IMG/VR virus record: IMGVR_UViG_3300027749_000060
Location: 45,419 to 109,418 of that record
DNA: 64,000 nucleotides
DNA from: a virus
Strand: one strand, 5' to 3'
The position numbers were made by a program, and so were the translations under genes. Below the pieces are notes generated by a model. That model was not told where the DNA came from. It worked only from the letters and a program-made list of their open reading frames with translations, and did not search any database. This document shows, in pieces, positions 3,271-55,209 of this stretch (position 1 is the stretch's first letter; each line of letters opens with the position of its first letter).

Positions 3271-3278
3271 TATAAATA
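3271..3278 (+). promoter_or_regulatory. T4-type late promoter TATAAATA heading the structural module
   Basis: Exact T4 late consensus 20 nt upstream of the first structural gene. The TAAATA core recurs at 8956, 9363, 24889, 24901 and 29848. Confidence 0.8.
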
Positions 3279-44251: not shown

Positions 44252-44323
44252 AATTGTGTCCTTGTGTGTATGTTAACTTATTTATCTACTTAATGCAATA
44301 GCTAAACAGTTTTTTTTGGTGAA

Positions 44324-48103: not shown

Positions 48104-48970
48104 TTAAGTACCCCACTCATTTTTAAATAACGGTACTTGTAGCCTATCACTGTACCGTAGTCCGTGTTTCATTGCCAACAATGCCACATTACGATTGTTT
48201 AATGCATACACACTTTCAACACCGCCCACTGGCATTAGATACACATGCCCTGTAAATCCTGCTGCACGATATTCAGCAATGGCACGTTCTGCATCTTCAA
48301 AATCTTCCTGTGTGGCAATAACAAACTTTAAATATGCTGTGCCGTATTCTTCATATTCACAAACTACTTCGGGTAGAATAGCTTCTTCCCACGGCTCACC
48401 ACTACAAGGCAATTTGGCACTTACTGAGAAGGTAATCTCACGCCAAAAGTCTTGATCATGATGTGATTTCCATGTGTGCAAATACGAAGCAAAGTCTAGA
48501 GCAAGTTTCTGAGTACCATTGGTTTCAAATGTAATTTCTTTCAAGCCAGCCATCTTAGGATGATTTAACAAATCTGGATAAGCACGTTGCCATCCCAGCA
48601 ATGGTTCGCCTCCGGTGATAACCAAATGCTCATCGCGCCACTCACCATGCGGAAGTATTTCCATAATGCGTTCTACAATTGCATCTGTCGTTAACATTGG
48701 ACTTAGATCTTTAAATGCTGGATCCCAGCTGGCATAGCTATCGCAGCCTGTGCTTACTAACGGGAGCTCTTCATACTTTTGAAAAGGGGTAACCAATGAA
48801 TGTGTAGCTGCAATACCAGCAGCCTCCATACTTAATTCTCCGCGTGGCATACCAAACCCTGCACATTTAAAATTACATCCAAATGTACGTAAGAAAACAG
48901 ACGGCACACCCATGTAACGTCCTTCACCTTGGATGCTGTAGAACAGCTCTGCTATTTTAATTTTGCTCAT
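48104..48970 (-). CDS. queE: 7-carboxy-7-deazaguanine synthase (radical SAM)
   Basis: ELFYSIQGEG..GVPSVFLRTFGCN..C...CDS, VITGGEP, ETNG, YLMP, S.RLQ; clustered with queD and folE. Confidence 0.9.
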   Translation of the reverse strand: MSKIKIAELFYSIQGEGRYMGVPSVFLRTFGCNFKCAGFGMPRGELSMEAAGIAATHSLVTPFQKYEELPLVSTGCDSYASWDPAFKDLSPMLTTDAIVERIMEILPHGEWRDEHLVITGGEPLLGWQRAYPDLLNHPKMAGLKEITFETNGTQKLALDFASYLHTWKSHHDQDFWREITFSVSAKLPCSGEPWEEAILPEVVCEYEEYGTAYLKFVIATQEDFEDAERAIAEYRAAGFTGHVYLMPVGGVESVYALNNRNVALLAMKHGLRYSDRLQVPLFKNEWGT

Positions 48971-49235
48971 AAATGTTAGACCATTTCTTAAGTTTTTCAA
49001 TCTTTGCTTTTTTTGCAACTTCTAAGTTGTCTATGGATATTACACCCAACTCAAGCATAATGTCAATCATTGCGAGCATATCGCCCAATTCTTCTTCAAG
49101 ATGCTCTCGATTGGTTTTAGGTTTACCCGGTTTTACATTGTCGGCTCCAAAGCGATTAATTTTACTAACTGCTTGGATTACCTCTGCACATTCTTCTTGA
49201 AGAATATCCATTACTTCTTTTTCTTTAGCATTCAT
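48957..49235 (-). CDS. MazG-like NTP pyrophosphohydrolase
   Basis: EECAEV...LEEELGD.L motif. Confidence 0.8.
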   Translation of the reverse strand: MNAKEKEVMDILQEECAEVIQAVSKINRFGADNVKPGKPKTNREHLEEELGDMLAMIDIMLELGVISIDNLEVAKKAKIEKLKKWSNIYEQN

Positions 49236-49253: not shown

Positions 49254-49862
49254 TTAATAATAAGGTCCAAAATCTGGAGTACGTTGATATCTTGCAACAT
49301 ATGCATTCCACATTAGAGAAAAATCGTTGCAGGTAAACAAACTAATTAACTGCTTTTGATTTAAATAGTTTTCAGTATGTGTACCTACTGTTTTGTTTAT
49401 TAGTGCTACATATTGATCTGCTACTGGTAAATCAAATGCTTGCAATAATCTAACTGATTTTTTTAGCGTATCTTGGCTACCTGCTAAGTCGTCAACTAGT
49501 AAAATAGGATTACCGGTTACTCTGCCTTCGGTGAAATTTAATAATCCGTACGATTTACGTGTTTTTTTTAAACTAATCATTGGTGACCCTAATATTTGAG
49601 CCATACCAAATCCTAGTGTAATTCCTGCATCCTCGCATGCCCCAATTTGCACATTAGTATGCGGCAATTTTTCTATTAGAAGTTCTGCTGCTGTAGTTAC
49701 AAACTTAGGATCAAATAAACATCTACGCAAATAGAATTGCCAATAGTAAGAATCATTTGCTGCTTTTGCTGGAATTGCTGCTTGCCCATCTGGCACTCTA
49801 TAAATGCCGCGATGCTCAATTTCGTTTCTTAAATAAATCCATTTTTCGTTACTAATGCTCAT
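49254..49862 (-). CDS. Type I phosphoribosyltransferase-like protein
   Basis: RKSYG loop and PRPP-binding ILLVDDLAGSQDT; ATGA overlap with the queD stop. Confidence 0.75.
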   Translation of the reverse strand: MSISNEKWIYLRNEIEHRGIYRVPDGQAAIPAKAANDSYYWQFYLRRCLFDPKFVTTAAELLIEKLPHTNVQIGACEDAGITLGFGMAQILGSPMISLKKTRKSYGLLNFTEGRVTGNPILLVDDLAGSQDTLKKSVRLLQAFDLPVADQYVALINKTVGTHTENYLNQKQLISLFTCNDFSLMWNAYVARYQRTPDFGPYY

Positions 49863-50356
49863 GCAAATAAGTCCTCGTTCCATTCACGATGTCCTTCACG
49901 GAAAGCCATATTGGCCTGTGTCTCACGCACTTCCACACGATAACACCACAGTCGCTTGGCTTCACCTTCGCCCCAGTAGTCGGGGATATAAACACCATTG
50001 ACATACTTGTACAGCATGTCACTCAGCGACTCGCATCCCATGGCTGGCAGGATAGTCAGTTTGGCCAACTTACGGCGTTCCATTTCTTTGTAGAACTCAA
50101 GTTCTGGATCATCATGTGCCACCAGAGTTGTGTGATCAAATTGGTCTTCTAATATCTTTTTAAGTTCTTTCAATCCGCCGTAGTCAGCAACCCAGTTGCG
50201 AACGTCTAAGTCGTTGGTTCCAAAATAGAACTTCATACTAAACGAGTAACCGTGATTCATATTGCAATGACTATCGGCCCTCCATTGTCTATAAGCGCAA
50301 GGAAATGCGTCTATGTACTCTTTTGTACTAGTGTACTTGTATGTGATTGGGGTCAT
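49859..50356 (-). CDS. queD: 6-carboxy-5,6,7,8-tetrahydropterin synthase
   Basis: C...HGY, WV.DYG.LK, FDHT, CESL, VEVRET. Confidence 0.88.
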   Translation of the reverse strand: MTPITYKYTSTKEYIDAFPCAYRQWRADSHCNMNHGYSFSMKFYFGTNDLDVRNWVADYGGLKELKKILEDQFDHTTLVAHDDPELEFYKEMERRKLAKLTILPAMGCESLSDMLYKYVNGVYIPDYWGEGEAKRLWCYRVEVRETQANMAFREGHREWNEDLFA

Positions 50357-50428
50357 GCTGTTTCTCCTATGTTAATTATAGCATAGGCGGCGGAGTTTGT
50401 AAAGCGGGACGATGCCGATAGACCGCTG
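50357..50428 (-). promoter_or_regulatory. Candidate preQ1-I-like riboswitch in the queD leader
   Basis: AGCGG-UCUAUCGGCAUCGUC-CCGCU-UUACAAAC-UCCGCCG, followed by a CCUAUG/CAUAGG hairpin occluding the AGGAG SD; TAAATA at 50433-50438. Confidence 0.6.
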
Positions 50429-50440
50429 TATGTATTTATC

Positions 50441-51617: not shown

Positions 51618-52023
51618 CTTGTGCTTCCTCTATTTCTTCTATCTTTAACAAATCATTAAACCAGTATTCCGAACGATCAAAAATCCATCCAGATTCTTCC
51701 AATGATTTATAAATGTCTATTCCAATTAAATTTTTAATTTTAATTTGTTCTTCACTATTGACTTGTGATGGAAACAACCAAGCAGCCACTGATACACTAG
51801 TTTTAGGAACAAGCGTTAACAAACTCCAACTATATTCGGTACCTTTTGTTAATTCAATTCCGTCAATGTTTTCTAAATTCATATCAGGCATGGTATGGTT
51901 CCAGCATACAAATTCTGAATATTCAAATGTCTCACGCCGTGAAATAGTCAAACTGCCTTTATACCAATATTGCTGCTCAATTATTTTGTTTTTGTATTGA
52001 GGTGATATTTTCCATTTTTTCAT
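51607..52023 (-). CDS. Hypothetical protein
   Basis: ATGA overlap with the folE stop. Confidence 0.65.
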   Translation of the reverse strand: MKKWKISPQYKNKIIEQQYWYKGSLTISRRETFEYSEFVCWNHTMPDMNLENIDGIELTKGTEYSWSLLTLVPKTSVSVAAWLFPSQVNSEEQIKIKNLIGIDIYKSLEESGWIFDRSEYWFNDLLKIEEIEEAQDGN

Positions 52024-52730
52024 CGCGGTGCAAACTCCTGCTGTAGTTTGATGTTATCAAAAAACTCCTTCTTGGTGCTTTGATCTGTTTGAAATGCACC
52101 TCGAAGCACAGTAGTTTGAGTTAGACTGCTATGTGCCATGATACCACGATTCTCACAGCATCCATGTGTAGCTTGGATATAAACACCTAGGTCTGTTGCT
52201 CCTGTAGCTTTTTGGATTTCTCTAGCAATGTCATTGGCCAGTTCTTCCTGCAAAGTACCACGACGAGCGCACCAATGAGCAATACGAGTGTACTTAGACA
52301 AACCAATGAGCTTTTCTGCGGCGATAATCCCAATATAAGCGACACCAGATACAGGCTGGTGATGATGGCTACACATACTGCGTAGTTCACTTCTAACCAC
52401 AAGCATGCCTTCGTATCTATCTGCTGAATCATTTGGAAAAGCCGTTGCATTCGGTGCTGGTTCATATCTACCTTCCATAATTTCATTAAAATACATTTTA
52501 GCTAATCGACGTGCAGTACCTTTACTATTAGGATCTGTTTCACGATCAATTAATAATCTATCCAGTACAGTTTCAAATGCTAGTGTAGCTTCGTCAATTA
52601 AAATGTCTTTATCCAATCCGCTGATATATTCGCTAATATTATCGCCTGCCCAAAAGCGTTTGTTATCGCGTTTCATCTTAGAGCGAATATGATCGCCGAG
52701 ATAAATTTCTTTGTTGTCTGTTTCACTCAT
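52020..52730 (-). CDS. folE: GTP cyclohydrolase I
   Basis: TARRLAKMY, SMCSHH, IGLSK..RI, LQE.L, HGC...RG. Confidence 0.95.
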   Translation of the reverse strand: MSETDNKEIYLGDHIRSKMKRDNKRFWAGDNISEYISGLDKDILIDEATLAFETVLDRLLIDRETDPNSKGTARRLAKMYFNEIMEGRYEPAPNATAFPNDSADRYEGMLVVRSELRSMCSHHHQPVSGVAYIGIIAAEKLIGLSKYTRIAHWCARRGTLQEELANDIAREIQKATGATDLGVYIQATHGCCENRGIMAHSSLTQTTVLRGAFQTDQSTKKEFFDNIKLQQEFAPR

Positions 52731-52806: not shown

Positions 52807-53775
52807 TTATGATAGGGTTTTTTGCCATTGCCATGCAGTTGCTACAATATTTTCGATAGTACTATTGCGTGGCCGCCAAGAGGTTAGTTGTTTAAATTTT
52901 ACGCTGTCGGCTACAAGTTTATCTGGATCACCCTCACGGCGTGGCCCAATATCTACATTGATTGTATCTCCTACAGCATAACTACATGCATTAATAATTT
53001 CTTTATTACTATAGCCATGGCCAGTTCCTAAGTTGTATGCTTCGAACCTTCCGGGATCGAAACTTTCAGCCAAACACACAGATTCTAAATGTGCCTGCGC
53101 GATATCAGTTACATGCAAATAATCGCGTATGCAAGTGCCATCTGCGGTATCATAATCATTTCCGTTTAATACAAATGATTTCTTATTTTGATATGCACCT
53201 AATATCCGAGGAATGATATGTGTAGCATCAGCAGTATGACCTAATGCTCCTCCGGCATCCGCTCCGCAGGCATTAAAATAACGTAATGCAATACCTTTGT
53301 ATCCGTGTGCATTGCAATGATCTGCAATCACTTGTTCGCACATGAGTTTACTCCACCCATATGGATTCATTGGTTCTTGTTTAGAAGATTCACTAATAGG
53401 ATTAGAACAGTAATTACCGTAGGTAGCAGCACTACTACTGAAAACAATTTTACCTGACCAACCGTGCAATTGATCTAACAAAATGTTAGTTTTTGACACA
53501 TTATTGTTATAATATTCACCAGGATTGGTCATGCTAGGACCTACTAGACTTGTACCTGCACAATGTATAATAGCATCTGCATTATTTATTTTTGCAGCAG
53601 TTGCAGCAACATCGGTGTAGTCGGCTACTAGCATATTGTCCATATAATGTGCAGCCTTGGGTATAGTTATAGTGCGATCAACACCGATAACATAATACCC
53701 TGCTTCTTTAAAAGTCTTGGCGGTATGACTGCCAATAAATCCAAATGCACCAGTAATTACAACTCTTTTACTCAT
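52807..53775 (-). CDS. galE: UDP-glucose 4-epimerase
   Basis: GAFGFIG, FSSSAATYG, YGWSK (YxxxK), RYFNACGA, DGTCIRDYLHV.D.A.AH. Confidence 0.92.
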   Translation of the reverse strand: MSKRVVITGAFGFIGSHTAKTFKEAGYYVIGVDRTITIPKAAHYMDNMLVADYTDVAATAAKINNADAIIHCAGTSLVGPSMTNPGEYYNNNVSKTNILLDQLHGWSGKIVFSSSAATYGNYCSNPISESSKQEPMNPYGWSKLMCEQVIADHCNAHGYKGIALRYFNACGADAGGALGHTADATHIIPRILGAYQNKKSFVLNGNDYDTADGTCIRDYLHVTDIAQAHLESVCLAESFDPGRFEAYNLGTGHGYSNKEIINACSYAVGDTINVDIGPRREGDPDKLVADSVKFKQLTSWRPRNSTIENIVATAWQWQKTLS

Positions 53776-53776
53776 A

Positions 53777-54955
53777 TTAATATTTTGTTTCGTGTGTGTG
53801 TTTCCGATAGTCTGTGCTCATACGCAGCCATTTCTCGCCTGTACCTTGCAAGATATCAACCACGCGATCAATGGTACCATCATTCCAGTCACTGATCTCG
53901 CCTTGGCGTTCGTGTGCATAACCCAGTAGATCTTCCAGCTTGGTCAATGCATCATCGATGCTCCAAGGGATATAAAGTCTTGTAGGATCGTTAGCAAAGG
54001 TTTCGGGGAAACTGCGATAAGCAGGGTAAAGTACATTACAACCAAGAGTGTCCGCTTCTGATACAGTGTTTGAGACCCAATCTTGTAAAGCGCAATTAAA
54101 AAGCACACGAGTATCATTAAGGAGAGCATAGTAGTCGTTCTTTTCCAAGTCCTCATAGATTGTCAGCAGGCCACGTGCTGCAAGATTGTGTGTACGAGCC
54201 ATGTAGCTGTCGTTGTTGCTCTTTAGTTTTGCACCACTGAAGATACAGAACTCTACTGGATGTGCCGGAAAACGTGCATGCCAGGCTTCGATAAGATCCA
54301 TGTAAAAGTCTGGTTGCTTTTCTTGATCCCAACGTGCAGCAAAGCCCACACGCATGGTGCGATCACCAAAGTCCTTTAGTTCGCCAGGCACACGGCTACG
54401 TACTTCTGCCTTGCCAAATGCCAAGCCTGAAATATTGTAGATAGGACTTTTCCAGCCTGCAACCTTCATGTGCATTACCATTTCTTCATTGGTGGCCAGT
54501 ACTCCGTCGACAAAGCTGTCCACCATTTTTTCATAGTGTCCCATGAAATCTTGCATACCCCATACATGAACAAAATCGTCAGGATCAATGGACTGAGCAA
54601 GACAGCGAACATAAATCCTAGGCCGGTGACTGTTATCGATCTGTTTAAGAATATACGGGAGGCTTTCGATTCCAGGCTGAAACATGTCTTCAAAGTAAAT
54701 AACATCTTCATTGTTGAGTTCTCCTGCCTTCATCATTCTAATTAGATTCATCAACTGGCTCATACCAAAGTATGTGCGGCCGTGTGCATCCAGTACTTGT
54801 CCAGTTACAATGGCTTGATCGTTGCTGAGTGTTTCGCCGGGTACTATAACATAGTCAATGCCGCGTTGTTCAAAAACAGCACGATTCCACTCTTGCAGTT
54901 GTAGAGTGTATCTGGCCTTGTAAGGTTCAAGACCCATGTAATAAAGTTTACGCAT
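53777..54955 (-). CDS. GT-B fold (GT4-like) glycosyltransferase
   Basis: FAARWDQEKQP, QDWVSNTVSEA (D/E-x7-E), YP..RSFPE; start MRKLYY after an AAGGA SD. Confidence 0.8.
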   Translation of the reverse strand: MRKLYYMGLEPYKARYTLQLQEWNRAVFEQRGIDYVIVPGETLSNDQAIVTGQVLDAHGRTYFGMSQLMNLIRMMKAGELNNEDVIYFEDMFQPGIESLPYILKQIDNSHRPRIYVRCLAQSIDPDDFVHVWGMQDFMGHYEKMVDSFVDGVLATNEEMVMHMKVAGWKSPIYNISGLAFGKAEVRSRVPGELKDFGDRTMRVGFAARWDQEKQPDFYMDLIEAWHARFPAHPVEFCIFSGAKLKSNNDSYMARTHNLAARGLLTIYEDLEKNDYYALLNDTRVLFNCALQDWVSNTVSEADTLGCNVLYPAYRSFPETFANDPTRLYIPWSIDDALTKLEDLLGYAHERQGEISDWNDGTIDRVVDILQGTGEKWLRMSTDYRKHTHETKY

Positions 54956-54966
54956 GATATTCCTTA

Positions 54967-55209
54967 TTAACGAGCATCGTTTCCATAACGACGTCCTTGA
55001 CGTATCATCCATCCCCAGTTGTCACGAGGCCAGCGTCCATTCTGGAAACGTATATAGTCTCCAAATGGGCTATACTCATTGCCCAGATGGGCTTCGTTAA
55101 ACGGAAAACCATAATCCGCACAAAATTTGCAATACTTATCGAGGTCGTCAAAAATACGACTCACTTCTGGTTTCATGACAAAATATTTTTTAAGTTGATG
55201 ATTAGACAT
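54967..55209 (-). CDS. Hypothetical protein in the modification operon
   Basis: AAGGA SD before MSNHQL. Confidence 0.65.
   Translation of the reverse strand: MSNHQLKKYFVMKPEVSRIFDDLDKYCKFCADYGFPFNEAHLGNEYSPFGDYIRFQNGRWPRDNWGWMIRQGRRYGNDAR

Follow-up and report, generated by a model that had tools for sequence, protein, structure and literature searches.

The 84-nt leader of the queD-like gene on the minus strand of the window, extending from the end of the upstream ORF (50441) to the queD start (50356), probably comprises the aptamer and expression platform of a new candidate riboswitch class, so far phage-only, that would turn translation on. The window is the whole 64,000-nucleotide stretch of DNA that was analyzed, a part of a 109-kb IMG/VR virus record with a CheckV completeness of 31%. 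The original prediction had read this leader as a preQ1-I-like riboswitch variant. Re-reading of the sequence located all of the listed elements on the minus strand between 50366 and 50439 (Table 1), including the CCUAUG/CAUAGG hairpin (P3) that was said to bury the Shine-Dalgarno (SD) sequence and that pairs the AGG of AGGAG (50368-50364). The comparison with relatives described below supports one part of that reading, a real conserved H-type pseudoknot with a preQ1-I-like layout, but not its membership in the preQ1-I class. It also goes beyond the original prediction in two respects: the 3' strand of P2 is an anti-RBS strand, which reverses the predicted logic to ON, and the hairpin loop together with the tail forms a sigma-70-like promoter.

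Table 1. Coordinates of the queD leader elements and pathway genes in the window
Feature	Position	Strand	Basis or remark
Upstream ORF, end	50441	-	leaves 84-nt gap before queD
ATAAATA, putative T4-late-like promoter box, 5 nt upstream of P1	50439-50433	-	sequence; putative activity
P1 5' strand AGCGG	50423-50427	-	pairs with 50403-50407
Loop closed by P1, 15 nt, U first, C last	50422-50408	-	sequence
L1 UCUAUC; family pattern N-C-U, then 0-7 variable bases	50417-50422	-	family comparison
P2 5' strand GGCAUCG	50410-50416	-	family covariation
L2 UC; C50408 family-invariant, candidate ligand-pairing base	50408-50409	-	QueD-derived alignment
P1 3' strand CCGCU	50403-50407	-	pairing with P1 5' strand, covariation
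Tail UUACAAAC	50402-50395	-	sequence
L3 UUACAAACUC; family pattern N-D-A-H-A-D-A-Y-U-C	50393-50402	-	family alignment
P2 3' strand CGCCGCC; last CC common to P2 and P3	50386-50392	-	covariation, folding
P3 hairpin CCUAUG (50387-50382), 10-nt loop, CAUAGG (50371-50366)	50366-50387	-	RNAfold -6.9 kcal/mol
Embedded sigma-70-like promoter TTTACA-17-TGcTATAAT	50375-50403	-	consensus scan; predicted
Shine-Dalgarno AGGAG	50364-50368	-	read from sequence
queD start codon ATG	50356	-	sequence
queD-like gene, PTPS family, 165 aa, putatively regulated gene	49859-50356	-	Pfam PF01242 6.9e-15; PHROG 2389 6e-35
209-aa ORF, weak phosphoribosyltransferase similarity, next in operon	49254-49883	-	NCBIfam APRT/OPRT 2e-6 to 1e-4, below cut-offs
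QueE-like radical SAM gene	48104-49018	-	PHROG 2076 7e-50; NCBIfam QueE 4e-16, below cut-offs
GTP cyclohydrolase I (FolE), upstream, not under leader	52020-52730	-	Pfam PF01227 4.8e-39

Relatives of the leader were collected by QueD homology alone, which yielded 594 relatives in IMG/VR, 80 of which were kept. A covariance model, R1, built from 43 relatives with the window left out, matched the window leader at 57.5 bits (E 5e-17) as the sole real match in the window and in the 109-kb record, and placed the motif just upstream of queD in 76 of the 80 QueD-homology loci (27-65 bits). A degenerate DNA pattern added at least 120 further IMG/VR contigs; among the matches listed, the motif was genuine in 119 of 120 contigs, and the downstream ORF was QueD-like in 111 of the 116 loci having one. 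The motif-bearing loci include QueDs only 33-45% identical to the window's QueD, and the pseudoknot is kept through compensating base changes in at least about 190 other uncultured phage contigs. Each of five large, near-complete genomes carried one copy. At a few loci (L085, L138, L146, L152, and L192), the motif opens an operon with a cupin, a methyltransferase-like protein, or an ORF of unknown function in first place; queD lies within 5 kb downstream of the motif in L085, and the motif of L054 (2018-2065) is located ~1 kb upstream of queD.

Covariation across these leaders shows the RNA to form a conserved H-type pseudoknot with a 5-bp P1. Six covarying P1 variants with full complements were observed (AGCGG, UGCGG, ACCGG, AGUGG, AGAGG, and AUCGG), and the loop finds its pairing partner immediately after a conserved UCYGC, in combinations such as GGCA/UGCC, GGCG/CGCC, GGCU/AGCC, GACA/UGUC, GGUG/CACC, GACGC/GUGUC, GGCAU/AUGCC, and ACGAC/GUCGU. 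In a plain MAFFT alignment the P2 5' strand was misplaced, owing to the variable lengths of L1 and L2, and the alignment made with R1 had scattered insert columns; therefore, we used a length-homogeneous subset and a register rule. In this gap-free subset, A2, consisting of 43 sequences chosen for pairing, P1 and P2 were 94.9% paired compared to 71.7% after shuffling and 33-54% in slid registers, and the covariation score was 0.60 compared to 0.18 for shuffled sequences, a value reached by 0 of 500 shuffles. Since A2 had been chosen for pairing, the count was repeated on all 135 unique leaders with a pairing-blind register, giving 76-78% paired P2 positions versus 30-48% in slid registers; pairing was 7 to 10 sd above that with swapped or shuffled partners. 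A score for a contiguous helix from the first base was replaced, as it separated native from swapped partners poorly. Thus both P1 and P2 covary among the queD leaders of related phages.

An extra pair was identified between the A/G of UC[A/G]UC and the U/C of UC[U/C]GC, which was A-U in 126 and G-C in 9 unique sequences with 0 exceptions and which adjoins an invariant C-G. P2 therefore has seven layers, consisting of a variable 3- to 7-bp part, a U.C mismatch, the invariant C-G, and the covarying R-Y pair. On a FastTree phylogeny of QueD, at least 8 changes were counted for the A-U/G-C switch, 20 for P1, and 68 for the P2 class; the tree is short and weakly resolved, and these counts are therefore read only as "many independent events". 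In the window, the family-wide P2 register consists of GGC/GCC plus CG/CG with two mismatches: GGC pairs with GCC at 50386-50388, C50411-G50391 and G50410-C50392 are paired, and A50413/C50389 and U50412/C50390 are mismatched. The window's own P2 is weak (5 pairs, 2 mismatches). The pairing originally proposed, GCCG (50391-50388) with the loop CGGC (50417-50414), is present in the sequence but is an alternative of this copy only and not the register of the family. The nested minimum free energy fold of the window leader was not better than that of shuffled sequences (z -0.25), by a method that is blind to pseudoknots. From the window sequence by itself, a promoter accompanied by chance hairpins would have been a possible explanation.

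The loops are conserved in a distinctive pattern. Of the 51 unique QueD-derived leaders, 20 have U, 17 have C, and 14 have A as the first L1 base (39%, 33%, and 27% across the family). This base is U in the window, but for the family the claim that the ligand-contacting loop positions of preQ1-I are kept is not supported. The second and third L1 positions were C in 96% and U in 94%, and L1 varied from 3 to 10 nt across the motif family. The remainder of L2 was UC, UUC, CC, AC, or CUC, with the last C invariant in the QueD-derived alignment. Three alternating A residues and the final UC were invariant in L3. The tail is more than a simple A-tract; its invariant UC leads into a 2-bp extension of P2 that covaries.

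To describe the expression platforms, the region from the P2 3' strand to the start codon was folded in 156 unique leaders. Four designs were distinguished: type A, represented by the window, with an SD hairpin (YGCC-UAUG ... CAUA-GG-AG); type B, with UGUC(A/G)UC ... GAUGGCA covering the AUG; type C, with a start-codon helix (UGCCAUUG ... CAAUGGCA); and type D, with an anti-SD pairing (ACUCC ... GGAGU). Every design reuses the P2 3' strand as the 5' strand of the helix that sequesters the RBS. In the window, P3 pairs the AGG of the SD sequence AGGAG, and C50387 and C50386 belong to both P2 and P3, which are therefore mutually exclusive. For the family as a whole, the reuse of the P2 3' strand makes the pseudoknot and the closed RBS mutually exclusive, and therefore knot formation should open the RBS (ON logic). 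P3 of type A itself covaries little. In leaders of types B and C (e.g., L007, L009, and L012), the helix that sequesters the start codon takes its 3' strand from the first codons, AUG GCA AA, which accounts for their nucleotide-level conservation; the loop and the coding sequence thus both constrain the P2 3' strand. A conserved aptamer with variable expression platforms is a signature of riboswitches, and the present family combines one aptamer consensus with at least four platforms in cis to metabolically coherent queD operons.

The same leaders contain promoter signals, and the whole conservation might in principle reside at the DNA level, in a sigma-70-like queD promoter (TTTACA-17-TATAAT) and/or a terminator hairpin of the upstream gene, with no RNA function. 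The embedded promoter of the window agrees with the consensus at 11 of 12 hexamer positions and has a TG and a 17-nt spacer. In type A leaders, L3 supplies the -35 element (TTTACA or TATACA; in the window, TTTACA at 50403-50398, within the L3 region), and TGnTAnnnT comes from the stem and loop of P3; of the 98 type A leaders, 92 retain TAnnnT and 93 retain TG. With its hexamers, 17-nt spacer, and TG conserved among relatives, this element is a predicted sigma-70-type promoter of type A. In addition, UUU follows the P1 hairpin. However, a promoter leaves the compensatory changes in P1 and P2 unexplained, and the 58 leaders of other types keep the aptamer without the -10 box (TAnnnT/TG in 3 of 58). 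P1 has a 13- to 19-nt loop and no U-run and so is not terminator-shaped, and the terminator scan lists none at this site. We consider a purely DNA-level explanation extremely improbable.

The embedded promoter nevertheless counts against the riboswitch reading, for it could yield an mRNA without the aptamer: the predicted transcript would begin within the 3' strand of P3 and bypass control as a short unregulated queD mRNA. A second signal is located upstream of P1. The sequence ATAAATA occurs in 9 copies in the window compared to 38 +/- 6 expected, a four-fold under-representation, and six or seven of the 9 copies sit 15-35 nt upstream of an SD plus ATG. Copies were recorded at 3272, 9362, 24082, and 29847 on the plus strand and at 44279, 45399, and 50433 on the minus strand. 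A TAAATA/TAAGTA box was found 5-14 nt upstream of P1 in 55 of the 98 type A leaders. Judged from sequence alone, ATAAATA matches 7 of 8 positions of the T4-type late promoter TATAAATA and is probably the T4-late-like promoter box of this phage, which would put the aptamer at the mRNA 5' end. For types B and C, a TTGACA-17-TATAAT element ends 5-8 nt before P1.

The riboswitch reading invites comparison with preQ1-I (RF00522), as represented by the B. subtilis queC, T. tengcongensis, and type I Carnobacterium antarcticum elements (PMC8752633). The phage motif shares with them an H-type pseudoknot of ~35-50 nt, a 5-bp P1 with a GG/CC junction end, a cytidine that closes L2 on its 3' side, adjacent to P1, an A-rich L3 expected along the P1 minor groove, a location preceding 7-deazaguanine pathway genes, and, as predicted here, translational control through P2. 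Recognition of the preQ1-I ligand falls to the L2 cytidine, to a conserved uridine in L1 (U6), to an L3 adenine, and to the last P1 guanine (PMC8752633). In the phage family, the invariant cytidine that ends L2 just before the P1 3' strand may by analogy have the same ligand-pairing role, and the pseudoknot with its 5-bp P1 and its P2 is supported by covariation. This much of the layout noted in the original prediction holds, namely P1 ending in GG/CC, the invariant C, and the A-rich tail. One could therefore regard the leader as a divergent preQ1-I member that binds preQ1 (or preQ0) and represses queD, an interpretation in line with the shared queD context, the H-type pseudoknot, the GG/CC top of P1, the C at the end of L2, and the UUACAAAC-like tail (PMC8752633).

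The covariance models do not support this assignment. The search with the Rfam preQ1 models that the original prediction had proposed left the leader unmatched: Rfam 15 at gathering thresholds gave no match in the window (the RF00522 threshold is 39 bits), no preQ1 model matched the 181 nt around the leader at E up to 10, and the best two RF00522 matches over the whole record, at 11 bits, were at unrelated sites. No preQ1 class was matched in 14 diverse leaders either, whereas as a positive control RF00522 found matches in 33 of 101 Bacilli genomes. Conversely, R1 with filters off scored 30 true preQ1-I RNAs from Bacilli at 6-10 bits, through the P1 hairpin only, compared to 27-65 bits for members of the family; thus neither model recognizes the RNAs of the other. 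The motif L1 starts with N-C-U, in contrast to the conserved U-U-C of preQ1-I, and the equivalent of U6 is not conserved. P2 is longer, with the invariant C-G, the covarying R-Y pair, and the U.C mismatch. In preQ1-I, an A-rich L3 leads straight into an SD-overlapping or pre-terminator P2 3' strand (OFF logic); in contrast, the motif L3 has alternating invariant A residues and ends in the invariant UC, followed by a CG/YG extension of P2, and its P2 3' strand is not the SD but pairs with the RBS region in the alternative fold, predicting ON rather than OFF. The motif also differs in occurring, so far, only in uncultured phage contigs whose pathway stops before preQ0/preQ1; in phages without QueC and QueF-type steps, preQ1 synthesis is unlikely. 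On balance, we regard membership in preQ1-I as very unlikely.

Among other known systems, SAM-II, SAM-V, and preQ1-II resemble the motif in being classic or HLout pseudoknots in which the ligand stabilizes a helix with a regulatory strand near the RBS. There is no sequence or model match to any of them, and in SAM-II, SAM-V, and preQ1-II the SD itself is buried upon ligand binding, whereas here an anti-SD or anti-start strand is captured. In the characterized preQ1-I, preQ1-II, and SAM-II switches, P2 contains the SD, and the logic is the opposite. A regulatory parallel is the Vibrio vulnificus add adenine riboswitch, where a ligand-stabilized aptamer competes with an RBS-sequestering helix and translation is turned on, as is proposed for the phage leader; the add aptamer, however, is a three-way-junction purine aptamer in a bacterial genome, in contrast to a phage pseudoknot.

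We propose that the aptamer would be transcribed first and would then fold. At the P1-P2 junction, a small ligand with a guanine-like Watson-Crick face would pair with the invariant cytidine of L2 and thereby lock P2; the locked P2 would hold the anti-RBS strand off the RBS, allowing queD to be translated. Without ligand, P3 would take the strand and close the RBS. By analogy with the cytidine of preQ1-I, the ligand is probably a compound with a guanine-like face. The candidate aptamer spans ~50 nt (50380-50429), a length at which binding tests are cheap.

The gene content of the motif-bearing phages bears on the identity of this ligand. The gene order in the window is FolE, four small ORFs, the leader, queD, the weak phosphoribosyltransferase (PRTase)-like ORF, and the QueE-like gene. 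Neither a QueC nor a TGT Pfam match was found in the 109-kb record. Four motif-bearing jumbo phage genomes of 95-100% completeness (the records of L072, L060, L035, and L027) contain FolE, QueD, and QueE. No full QueC or Pfam TGT was detected in these four, which yielded short sub-threshold PP-loop fragments only. Over the 192 motif loci, tblastn with cyanophage QueC and TGT gave 0 matches, and the same kind of search found QueE in 73, FolE in 89, and an XGPRT-like gene in 17. The absence of queC noted originally for this phage thus extends to the motif-bearing genomes and loci searched, and with no QueC and no QueF-type step, preQ1 is an unlikely product of these pathways.

Pathways that terminate at CDG in 7-deazaguanine DNA modification have been described in Cellulophaga phage phiST and Campylobacter phage CP220, with a distant DpdA3 that standard models miss (PMC10516641). 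The motif phages resemble them in having FolE, QueD, and QueE without QueC, and no canonical TGT-type DpdA was detected in them; they differ in the RNA element, none being described for phiST and CP220, and in that some carry a clustered phosphoribosyltransferase. A weak PRTase-like ORF lies between queD and queE in the window (49254-49883, minus strand) and in L355 (7093-7554). In the cultured freshwater cyanophage BUCT-ZZ01, the QueE-QueD-FolE cluster includes a gene annotated as a xanthine-guanine PRTase, a relative of which occurs in 17 motif loci. The presence of PRTase genes hints at a base-to-nucleotide step in the QueC-less pathways. We also noted a 411-aa ORF (53777-55012, minus strand) that adjoins a NAD-dependent sugar epimerase/dehydratase gene (52807-53775, minus strand). 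Its product matched neither Pfam nor PDB entries but shares 63% identity with a protein of BUCT-ZZ01, and Acidovorax and Xanthomonas phages show synteny of this ORF with queD. Its assignment as a distant DpdA was rejected, as no PDB sequence matched and its language-model neighbors pointed to GT4 glycosyltransferases.

An ON switch on a biosynthetic gene is unusual. Placed on the first committed enzyme, the ON logic, combined with the lack of QueC, favors a precursor or released base (a GTP-derived pterin or guanine) or CDG/7-deazaguanine over preQ1, and a GTP-derived pterin, free guanine, or CDG/7-deazaguanine are accordingly more plausible ligands. A more specific version of the proposal, which we put forward tentatively, is a phage-specific class that would sense one of these compounds as a precursor or by-product of DNA hypermodification, rather than preQ1, and would switch the first committed enzyme on. 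Type A would add an embedded host-type promoter, such that early transcripts escape and metabolite gating applies solely to transcripts initiated at the upstream phage promoter.

The covariation and platform data would also apply if the pseudoknot were a ligand-independent or protein-operated translational switch, that is, an operator of a phage repressor or activator or of QueD, or a folding or kinetic timing device. Conserved single-stranded bases can be protein contacts, and the conserved loops might just as well bind a protein; T4-type phages use pseudoknot and hairpin operators in the textbook gene 32 and regA systems, and riboswitches are rarely found in phages, a 2017 census having counted only four examples in phage genomes (PMC5473149). 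On the other hand, the layout, with its 5-bp P1, A-rich L3, and junction cytidine, is that of small-ligand pseudoknot aptamers. The motif is tied to one metabolic gene across QueDs down to 33% identity and across unrelated platforms and promoter types, and a comparison of the neighbors of the motif loci revealed no conserved partner gene adjoining it. Based on these results, we rate a protein-operated or ligand-free switch as rather unlikely and retain the candidate riboswitch as the preferred reading.

The motif is so far known only from uncultured phage contigs. A pattern scan of 185,579 bacterial and archaeal species genomes gave 0 genuine cases by L1, L2, and P1 criteria in 120, among the matches listed, which is evidence of enrichment in phages and not of absence from bacteria. 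Five cultured phages recovered by the QueD and 411-aa-ORF searches (BUCT-ZZ01, ACP17, X1, Me-ZS1, and R5C) were without the motif; all five have queD directly abutting the gene upstream. Comparison of the leader or the queD region with 50,697 GenBank phage records by blastn returned nothing usable, with no match for the leader, and literature searches found no description of a phage queD RNA motif or of a fourth preQ1 class.

If the candidate riboswitch is borne out, a widespread phage-only class would open a new chapter, given the rarity of phage riboswitches. The smallest known aptamer fold would gain an ON-type relative, and the class would provide a handle on the metabolite signal in QueC-less 7-deazaguanine pathways. 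RNA sensors would then be a means by which phages meter their own DNA-hypermodification pathway.
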